Shown piece after piece: positions 13,573 through 14,018 of a stretch of DNA of 34,419 bases. The notes beneath the pieces are model-generated. The model saw only the letters and a list, made by a program, of their open reading frames with translations. It ran no database searches and was not told where the DNA came from. Location: the IMG/VR virus record IMGVR_UViG_2671180847_000009. The stretch is one strand, 5' to 3'. How positions within the stretch are numbered: position 1 is the first letter of the stretch; every line of letters begins with the position of its first letter. The stretch comes from a virus. Lineage: Duplodnaviria > Heunggongvirae > Uroviricota > Caudoviricetes. The translations under genes and the position numbers were made by a program.

Positions 13573-13914
13573 TCAGCGCACGCCGTCGTGCTCAAGGCTG
13601 AAATGATTGCCATCCGGGCGGTTTTTAAAACGACCGCCCCATGCGCCACCAAGGGATTCCCAGTACTCGCCCAGCTCGCGGTAGGCCTCTGTGCGGGTCT
13701 GATATTCACCGTTAATAAACAGATTAAAATCCACGGCCAGCCGCTGGCAGTGCAGGCTGTTGGCAATGCCGGATCCCTTTTGTGCGTTGAGTTTTGCCTG
13801 TTCTGGCGTGCGGTACGCCTCACCGAACGTCAGGCCATAACCGCGCTGATGGGCAAACTGGATGAGTTTTCCGATCATGACGGTAAATTGTTGTTGCTTA
13901 TCGGAGAGTTTCAT
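13573..13914 (-). CDS. Endolysin, peptidase M15 family (L-alanyl-D-glutamate peptidase type)
   Basis: 113 aa; S-L-H-C-Q-R-L-A-V-D and D-G-N-H-F motifs match the zinc-binding signature of M15 endolysins. Confidence 0.7.
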   Translation of the reverse strand: MKLSDKQQQFTVMIGKLIQFAHQRGYGLTFGEAYRTPEQAKLNAQKGSGIANSLHCQRLAVDFNLFINGEYQTRTEAYRELGEYWESLGGAWGGRFKNRPDGNHFSLEHDGVR

Positions 13915-14018
13915 TTTTGCTCCTTATGAGGTTGCTGAGGTTTGCGCAGCCAGTACCACAGTGCCCGGATAATTTTCCAGGCAATGGCGGCAGCTTTTTG
14001 TTCCCTGCGGGACAGCAT
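13911..14018 (-). CDS. Small ORF (35 aa, basic, Trp-rich) between holin and endolysin
   Basis: ATG at 14018 preceded by AGAGGAG; stop TGA overlaps the endolysin ATG (ATGA); predicted peptide MLSRREQKAAAIAWKIIRALWYWLRKPQQPHKEQK. Not in the ORF track (too short). Confidence 0.3.
   Translation of the reverse strand: MLSRREQKAAAIAWKIIRALWYWLRKPQQPHKEQK

Follow-up and report, generated by a model that had tools for sequence, protein, structure and literature searches.

A small open reading frame between holin and endolysin in a P2-like Escherichia prophage: a candidate outer-membrane disruptor in a lysis cassette that lacks spanins

The IMG/VR record IMGVR_UViG_2671180847_000009 is a stretch of 34,419 nucleotides of tailed phage DNA (Caudoviricetes). 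The window, by which we mean this whole stretch, spans an entire prophage of the P2/HP1-like type (Peduoviridae) from its cargo genes through to the integrase, and the host is Escherichia. The prophage genes lie on the minus strand of the window, as do all features whose window coordinates are given below. The lysis cassette is found among the tail genes, in the order sheath (14776-16056), tube (14324-14779), holin, a gap of 109 nucleotides, endolysin, tail assembly chaperone, a DUF6890 open reading frame (ORF) and tape measure. This report concerns a small ORF of 35 codons that fills the gap between holin and endolysin, and whose product is a candidate outer-membrane disruptor.

The small ORF (13911-14018) begins with ATG and encodes the 35-amino-acid peptide MLSRREQKAAAIAWKIIRALWYWLRKPQQPHKEQK, which is cationic (net charge +7) and rich in tryptophan. 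Its Shine-Dalgarno sequence, AGAGGAG (14027-14033), lies within the final codons of the holin gene, with 8 nucleotides from the last G to the ATG. The holin gene ends GAG GAG TAA, and five bases (14019-14023) separate this stop codon from the ATG at 14018. At its other end the small ORF overlaps the endolysin gene as ATGA, the TGA of the small ORF being at 13911-13913 and the ATG of the endolysin at 13912-13914. The Shine-Dalgarno sequence of the endolysin, AAGGAG (13920-13925), is contained within the final codons of the small ORF (K-E-Q). The ORF, its strong AGAGGAG site and the overlap of its stop codon with the endolysin start had been proposed from the sequence by the original prediction and are present as it described them; the distance of 7 nucleotides that it gave from the holin stop to the ATG is corrected to five. 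In a scan of the whole window this was the sole ORF of 20-80 amino acids preceded by a Shine-Dalgarno sequence, with a charge of at least +4 and in an otherwise non-coding gap.

The holin (14024-14320) is a protein of 98 amino acids that matches PF04550 (E = 5.6e-28) and the holin family PHROG 175. The family also includes gpY of P2 and gp29 of coliphage phiKT, to which the window holin is 39% and 27% identical respectively (E = 6e-11 for gp29). The endolysin (13573-13914) is a soluble protein of 113 amino acids with a Peptidase_M15_4 domain (PF13539) and an N-terminal helix at residues 5-23. A fold search with the endolysin model returned phage L-Ala-D-Glu peptidases (M15 endolysins) as top matches, all of them weak because the single-sequence model is mediocre. 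A sequence search of the PDB with the endolysin gave no match. The downstream boundary of the cassette is formed by the tail assembly chaperone (Phage_TAC_10, 13215-13508; PF10963, E = 1.6e-26), which is annotated by PGAP in the related loci L001 and L003. Only 64 nucleotides (13509-13572) lie between endolysin and chaperone; in relatives this gap is about 465-520 nucleotides long and holds an i-spanin/o-spanin pair.

The small ORF was compared across 57 cassettes from E. albertii, IMG/VR and metagenomes, which reduce to 22 haplotypes. The ATG, the Shine-Dalgarno sequence and the ATGA overlap are kept in 22 of 22, with AGAGGAG unchanged in all E. coli-type haplotypes and the AAGGAG of the endolysin also invariant. 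All three length changes are in frame, namely the loss of 3 nucleotides (one Ile codon), the loss of 9 nucleotides (a QQP unit) and the gain of 9 nucleotides (the QQP unit duplicated, in a separate cluster). The QQP unit belongs to a P-Q-Q-P stretch in codons 26-31 (13926-13943), and its loss or duplication gives alleles of 32 and 38 amino acids (P0031 and P0026). The C-terminal tail of the peptide seems to be loosely constrained.

Read in the claimed frame, the variants that segregate in the E. coli population are 12 synonymous, 12 nonsynonymous and 2 nonsense changes. The resulting ratio of nonsynonymous to synonymous change, 0.27 (binomial p = 0.0017), is the lowest of the six frames, the other five giving 0.44-0.71; the same ratio is 0.06 for the holin and 0.12 for the endolysin. 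The amino-acid substitutions are largely conservative (R/K/H, I/V/L, A/V, E/D). Residue 22, on the cationic face of the predicted helix, is the most variable (Y/H/R/C). The intact ORF is present on more than 1,900 contigs, and broken alleles account for less than 1% of contigs. One apparent frameshift allele (P0034) was discounted, as the neighbouring genes are likewise fragmented in that assembly. ORFs in alternative frames and on the opposite strand are not supported as coding because of the ratios of 0.44-0.71 found there. These include a Trp/Cys-rich alternative-frame ORF of 128 amino acids (13924-14310), which spans all of the holin gene and extends over part of the small ORF; no purifying selection is seen in its frame, and it is probably an artefact of composition.

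Two further lineages carry an ORF in the same position. A scan of 1.84 billion representative proteins found a relative of 39 amino acids, MKLTDRQQKRAAIAWKILRTLWRWLCKPQKTSKDKNETL, which is 61% identical to the window peptide and is encoded on contig L192. The gene order there is identical (tube, holin, ORF, M15 endolysin, chaperone). The tail of the L192 peptide is in a different reading frame and extends 14 nucleotides into the endolysin gene. Between the window and L192 the peptide has a ratio of nonsynonymous to synonymous substitution rates (dN/dS) of 0.30 at a synonymous divergence (dS) of 0.9, and the neighbouring genes have dN/dS of 0.04-0.10 at dS of 0.5-1.3. The same scan returned long repetitive proteins (P0017-P0019), which are low-complexity matches with 6-14 stretches each and were set aside.

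In the third lineage (L065, L073 and L132) the holin is 71-72% and the endolysin 86% identical to those of the window. The ORF in this lineage has 41 codons from a GTG start, or 28 codons from an internal ATG, and encodes MTGKKASPGILSGMRQFAVKVWQLLRSLQKLRNSMNGKTRP. In L065 a separate GGAGGA precedes the GTG at the spacing found in the window, and the ORF overlaps both neighbours, with its start on the holin stop and its stop on the endolysin start. Synonymous sites are saturated between the window and L065, and the two peptides are about 24% identical. The motif W-[KQ]-[IL]-[IL]-R-x-L is common to the three lineages, as are a net charge of +7 to +9 and a helix hydrophobic moment of 0.41-0.46. 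Tube, endolysin and chaperone are 83-95% identical among the three lineages, and their chaperone is about 40% identical to that of other cassettes.

These data bear on the possibility that the small ORF is not a gene at all. In that case RNA structure or regulation would account for the conservation of the 109-nucleotide spacer, and its open frame would be incidental. The region folds somewhat better than shuffled sequences (z = -2.1) and PGAP does not call the ORF. This signal of RNA structure is weak, and the predicted hairpin of the ORF region is not kept in L192. The frame-specific purifying selection, the in-frame insertions and deletions and the presence of ORFs with their own Shine-Dalgarno sequences in three lineages with differing sequences also speak against this explanation, which we regard as most improbable. 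The original prediction had suggested comparing synonymous with nonsynonymous change in related prophages, and that comparison bears it out, together with the in-frame length changes and the three lineages. The small ORF is very probably a gene and, to judge from its sequence context, it is probably translated as part of the late lysis cassette.

Among 5,426 complete E. coli genomes 41 have the cassette, which occupies 42 places in them with constant context. The description of the ORF as unannotated holds for RefSeq, where PGAP annotates only the holin and the M15 peptidase in 41 of the 41 carrying E. coli genomes. It does not hold elsewhere: a UniRef entry (A0A2X6GE95) and records of an E. 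coli 'hypothetical protein' contain the exact peptide, which occurs on at least 1000 contigs and belongs to a cluster of 50 members. The peptide has no match in PHROGs, and in Pfam only a sub-threshold chance match to WRW (13.9 bits, cut-off 26.5). A tblastn search of 50,697 phage records with the peptide found nothing, and no isolated phage carrying the peptide was found; a megablast search of phages with the structural region of the prophage likewise returned nothing. A profile of the three lineages searched against 5.8 billion proteins recovered only 17 clusters, all of 32-41 amino acids. All hosts that are named belong to Escherichia: the named proteins come from E. coli, and locus L004 from E. 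albertii. The small-ORF family is real, fast-evolving and narrow. Whatever its function, the locus holds a clear conserved small gene that RefSeq annotation has missed.

The peptide contains nine Lys/Arg and two Asp/Glu residues, three Trp and no Cys. The net charge ranges from +6 to +10 among 17 variants; the peptides of the two other lineages have +8 and +9. An AlphaFold2 model made without an alignment predicts a single helix at residues 4-24 (13947-14009; mean pLDDT 74), which includes the shared motif and is followed by a disordered basic tail. On a helical wheel K8, K15, R18, R25 and K26 fall within about 100 degrees, and Ala, Ile, Leu and Trp occupy the remainder. The hydrophobic moment ranges from 0.41 to 0.58 across the peptides, compared with 0.52 for gp28 of phiKT, a peptide discussed below; the best 18-residue moment of the window peptide is 0.54. 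The basic, Trp-rich character and the tendency to form an amphipathic helix had been anticipated by the original prediction and are borne out by these values.

No transmembrane segment is found in the peptide, whose best 19-residue Kyte-Doolittle mean is 0.41, compared with 1.75 for the holin and 2.63 for lambda Rz. No lipobox or signal peptide was found in it either. The sequence 'SRR...' might be read as a Tat or Sec signal; R4 and R5 vary (H/S/D/N and K, respectively) and the hydrophobic stretch is broken by K15 and R18, and this reading was rejected. The peptide does not have the features of a spanin, as it contains no Cys lipobox and no membrane anchor and at 35 amino acids is too short. 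It also differs from antiholins and similar holin accessory proteins in having no transmembrane domain and in being a separate ORF with its own Shine-Dalgarno sequence and start.

The M15 endolysin is 66-83% identical across many Enterobacterales, which allows the cassette to be compared with relatives outside the clade formed by the three lineages. In every one of those cassettes the holin gene overlaps or abuts the endolysin gene, and about 465-520 nucleotides follow up to the chaperone gene. Two overlapping genes are found there, one for an i-spanin that is anchored in the membrane by its N-terminus and one for a lipobox-bearing o-spanin, for example ...LMTLSAC|TTKPQ. This example has a weak match to the Pfam family LysC.

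A census of distinct M15 cassettes after removal of duplicates comprised 71 in which the holin abuts the endolysin and 19 with the small ORF. A lipobox o-spanin ORF lies downstream in 71 of the 71 holin-abutting cassettes, where the gap is 439-906 nucleotides. All 19 small-ORF cassettes have only 64-86 nucleotides after the endolysin and 102-118 nucleotides between holin and endolysin. The alternation is strict: each cassette has either a spanin pair or the small ORF, never both and never neither. Spanin pairs also follow PF04550 holins that are associated with other types of endolysin, with one exception.

This exception is found in two IMG/VR loci, L172 and L176. About 290-1000 nucleotides past the holin start, these encode a lysozyme-type endolysin and then a 58-amino-acid ORF with a transmembrane segment (MMNYILERLKEPSTWRGIILF...), and no i-/o-spanin pair is seen. 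They may represent a second kind of spanin-less cassette.

Spanins were also searched for in the rest of the prophage. A strict lipobox scan of the whole window found no credible ORF, only TTG-start ORFs antisense to known genes. A tblastn search of the window with eight spanin queries found nothing, with no hit below E = 0.09 for P2 LysB and LysC, lambda Rz and Rz1 or spanins of the relatives; P2 LysA gave no match either. The PGAP annotation of the whole prophage includes no spanin. A looser lipobox scan found an ORF of 42-43 amino acids with a TTG or GTG start, in the +1 frame at the 3' end of the endolysin gene. It has no Shine-Dalgarno sequence, an atypical TTAC box (TTVC in other haplotypes) and a mature part of 18 amino acids, and it was rejected. 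As read from the sequences, the spanin pair has been lost in this clade and the small ORF is there in its stead, and this arrangement has persisted through substantial divergence.

The peptide resembles the N-terminus of the endolysin encoded next to it. The L192 peptide aligns start to start with the first 19 residues of its own endolysin (MKLTDRQQKRAAIAWKILR and MKLSDKQQQFTVMIGKLIQ), and only one in 5,000 shuffled sequences aligns as well. In the same register p = 0.004 for the window peptide and p = 0.005 for the commonest variant; for the L065 peptide p = 0.016, with a register chosen after the fact. At the DNA level the window ORF matches the 5' end of the endolysin gene at 31 of 49 positions, again in the same register, and 1.5%-2.6% of shuffles are as good. 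The first helix of the AlphaFold2 endolysin model, residues 5-23, corresponds to the peptide helix at residues 4-24. Five of 24 positions are still identical between the peptide and the endolysin helix; G15 has become W and several residues have become R or K. A partial tandem duplication of the 5' end of the endolysin gene, followed by gain of charge and Trp, is a likely origin for the small ORF given these alignments. The duplicated segment would comprise roughly 25 codons at the start of the M15 endolysin gene, those for the N-terminal helix, and the copy would have evolved into a short, highly cationic, Trp-rich amphipathic helix.

The small ORF ends CAA AAA TGA (13911-13919). If the Lys tRNA slipped by -1 on the A-run there, reading would pass into the endolysin frame and yield a fusion of about 148 amino acids. 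A slip on CAAAAAUGA that joined the peptide to the endolysin would make a natural outer-membrane-penetrating endolysin. We find this barely credible. The A-run is missing in L065 and the Q28* and Q34* alleles break the fusion, so that it is unlikely to be conserved.

A comparable peptide is known from coliphage phiKT. Mutants of lambda Rz/Rz1 are complemented by the phiKT protein gp28 (Holt et al.; bioRxiv 10.1101/515445), a 'disruptin' of 56 amino acids whose net charge is +7. Its gene lies between those for the endolysin gp27 and the holin gp29, in a phage without a lipoprotein gene; synthetic gp28 is bactericidal, and the model for its mechanism is weakening of the outer membrane (bioRxiv 10.1101/515445). 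It is the only known non-spanin outer-membrane lysis factor. A paper of January 2026 describes gp28 as the archetype disruptin and notes that disruptin genes are not systematically predictable (PMC12819732). Homologues of gp28 are found in no phage beyond one near-identical one, so homology is not expected to define the disruptin class.

The window peptide shares with gp28 its small size, a net charge of +7, a predicted amphipathic helix and cytoplasmic synthesis, and neither has a signal, a lipobox or a transmembrane segment. In each case the gene has an endolysin gene on one side and a PF04550-family holin gene on the other, and the coliphage genome that carries it has no spanin; the phiKT holin (L190, 23283-23666) is in the same family as the window holin and P2 gpY. 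Unlike gp28, the peptide has 35 rather than 56 amino acids, is Trp-rich with a narrow cationic stripe, and probably derives from the N-terminus of its own endolysin. The gene order holin-peptide-endolysin is the reverse of that in phiKT, and the genome is that of a temperate P2-like myovirus prophage, whereas phiKT is a virulent T7-like podovirus. For gp28 a function is known from the complementation of lambda Rz/Rz1 mutants, whereas for the window peptide it is proposed. Of the features of disruptins, the window peptide shows a small cationic helix without a membrane-targeting signal, encoded in a spanin-less cassette. As gp28 defines the class, a disruptin also restores lysis to a spanin-defective phage (lambda Rz am Rz1 am), is needed by its own cassette for lysis and is bound to membranes, mainly to the outer one.

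From the alternation with spanins, the conservation and character of the peptide and this analogy, we propose that the peptide may replace the spanins as a disruptin-like factor that would act at and disrupt the outer membrane. This is the best-supported reading, and we give it an even chance of being correct. Synthesis would take place in the cytoplasm, with translation coupled to that of holin and endolysin. Once the holin has opened the inner membrane the peptide would gain access to the envelope; alternatively, it would insert into membranes unaided. In the envelope it would bind the anionic lipopolysaccharide layer and weaken the outer membrane, which would then fail after the endolysin has removed the peptidoglycan. 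The original prediction left the choice between a lysis regulator and a membrane-active peptide. Membership of the lysis cassette is supported by conservation and by the apparent translational coupling. The occurrence of the small ORF only in cassettes without a spanin pair favours a membrane-active role at the outer membrane rather than one in timing. A fuller version of this proposal is that the peptide is a second disruptin family, unrelated in sequence to gp28, that arose from a duplicated endolysin helix and became a stable spanin substitute in a temperate E. coli myovirus lineage, and that it would complement lambda Rz/Rz1 mutants and be bactericidal when synthetic. This version is possible but we consider it somewhat doubtful.

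Several observations weigh against assigning the peptide such a function. The three lineages form one clade, in which one event may account for both the missing spanins and the new ORF; the 71 and 19 cassettes accordingly do not amount to 90 independent observations. [quoted passage not shown] A tblastn search of the window with gp28 gave nothing below E = 0.28 and no hit at the small ORF; with no sequence similarity, the analogy draws only on character and context. No isolated phage of this lineage is in the collection searched, the nearest being ESSI-2-like phages whose major capsid protein is just 59% identical. The amphipathicity is moderate, as 7% of shuffled sequences reach the hydrophobic moment of the window peptide (1% for the commonest variant). 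The small ORF evolves three to seven times faster than its neighbours (0.27-0.30 compared with 0.04-0.12), and its segregating sites at codon positions 1, 2 and 3 number 8, 8 and 10, with no enrichment at position 3. Disruption of the frame beside an intact holin and endolysin, which the original prediction had named as the observation to set against it, occurs in rare alleles only. These are a genuine deletion of 1 nucleotide in codon 21, seen in five samples with holin and endolysin intact, and late nonsense changes at codons 28 and 34. The Q28* allele encodes a peptide of 27 amino acids and the Q34* allele, on 182 contigs, one of 33; both spare the helix.

Some of these observations bear on the most serious of the alternatives, which is that the ORF is translated but is a functionless relic of the partial duplication, the prophage then simply having no outer-membrane lysis factor. 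The ORF would be tolerated because it carries the ribosome-binding site of the endolysin and keeps translational coupling. The duplication origin, the fast evolution, the variable C-terminal tail with its change of frame in L192 and the circulation of nonsense and frameshift alleles would all be expected of a relic. The narrow distribution, Escherichia only and 17 protein clusters, and the existence of spanin-less phages fit it as well. A relic would not be expected to show a ratio of nonsynonymous to synonymous change well below 1 and lowest in the claimed frame. Nor does it explain why the ORF, its Shine-Dalgarno sequence and its high positive charge are kept across lineages with saturated synonymous sites, why most changes are conservative, or why fewer than 1% of contigs carry broken alleles. 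We judge the relic explanation to be unlikely.

Small additional genes are known from other holin-endolysin cassettes. P2 LysA and the 65-amino-acid Lcc6 of the Shewanella prophage LambdaSo are, like the peptide, small and non-enzymatic members of such cassettes. The peptide might accordingly act at the inner membrane in the timing or release of lysis, either as an antiholin or co-factor of the PF04550 holin or as a modulator of the endolysin that mimics its N-terminal helix. Its position between holin and endolysin, the translational coupling to both and its probable derivation from the endolysin helix are consistent with such a role. LysA and Lcc6, integral membrane proteins with an effect on holin timing or release, coexist with spanins, and known antiholins are likewise transmembrane proteins; the peptide has no hydrophobic segment and excludes spanins. 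A timing role does not account for the restriction of the ORF to spanin-less cassettes, and the surface of the helix has been drastically altered from that of the endolysin. We therefore think a timing role rather unlikely.

The proposed disruptin-like factor would perform the same final step of lysis as the two-component spanins (lambda Rz/Rz1, P2 LysB/LysC and the i-/o-spanin pair of the relatives), and it is present exactly where the pair is absent. Unlike the spanins, the peptide has no membrane anchor, periplasmic coiled coil, lipobox or homology to them, and it cannot span the periplasm or fuse membranes.

Trp-rich antimicrobial peptides include indolicidin, tritrpticin and the lactoferricin type. 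The window peptide is similar to these and to LL-37 in length, net charge, amphipathic helix and Trp/Arg content. It differs from them in that the target cell itself produces it, with neither pro-peptide nor export signal, and its moment of 0.54 is below the 0.78 of LL-37. A role apart from lysis of the producing cell can be envisaged, as an antimicrobial released at lysis, in superinfection exclusion or as a toxin. An antimicrobial-like composition (+7, Trp/Arg-rich, 35 amino acids) and the bactericidal activity of synthetic gp28 point in this direction. The tight coupling within the late lysis operon instead favours a function in lysis, each cell would make only small amounts of the peptide, and there is neither a signal peptide nor an immunity gene. 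Such a role appears very unlikely to us.

The way in which phages that lack spanins breach the outer membrane of their Gram-negative hosts is a standing question. The locus offers a close natural comparison between related cassettes with a spanin pair or the peptide, an E. coli candidate suited to the existing lambda complementation system, and a plausible route for the birth of such peptides through duplication of an endolysin helix. If the function were confirmed, the peptide would form a new and unrelated family within the disruptin class, the second after gp28, and swaps of spanin pair and peptide in syntenic cassettes could be used to find disruptins. A short Trp-rich peptide would also be added to the phage-derived outer-membrane permeabilisers, which would be of interest for engineered endolysins.

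Other features of the prophage were noted. The 64-nucleotide gap between the endolysin stop and the chaperone start contains a perfect 13-bp hairpin (13535-13566), GCTTAATAAGCCT...AGGCTTATTAAGC, followed by a T-rich run. The hairpin is terminator-like and is kept in L192 with one G.U pair. It may be an attenuator between lysis and tail genes, as annotated within P2 lysC.

The DUF6890 ORF (13027-13173) encodes 48 amino acids (PHROG 7050). It lies between chaperone and tape measure, abutting the latter, and is conserved in all three lineages. This is the position at which P2-like phages encode the frameshifted extension of the chaperone.

Beside the replication endonuclease gene, at about 24456-25734, are genes for a ParM segregation ATPase and a partition/stability protein, identified by similarity to the annotated locus L003. 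Such genes are not usual in an integrated P2-like prophage. Five consecutive ORFs of 565, 191, 237, 191 and 431 amino acids (1571-6389) lie past the tail fibre genes, and their counterparts in L003 are mostly annotated as hypothetical proteins. They may be cargo, for example a defence system.

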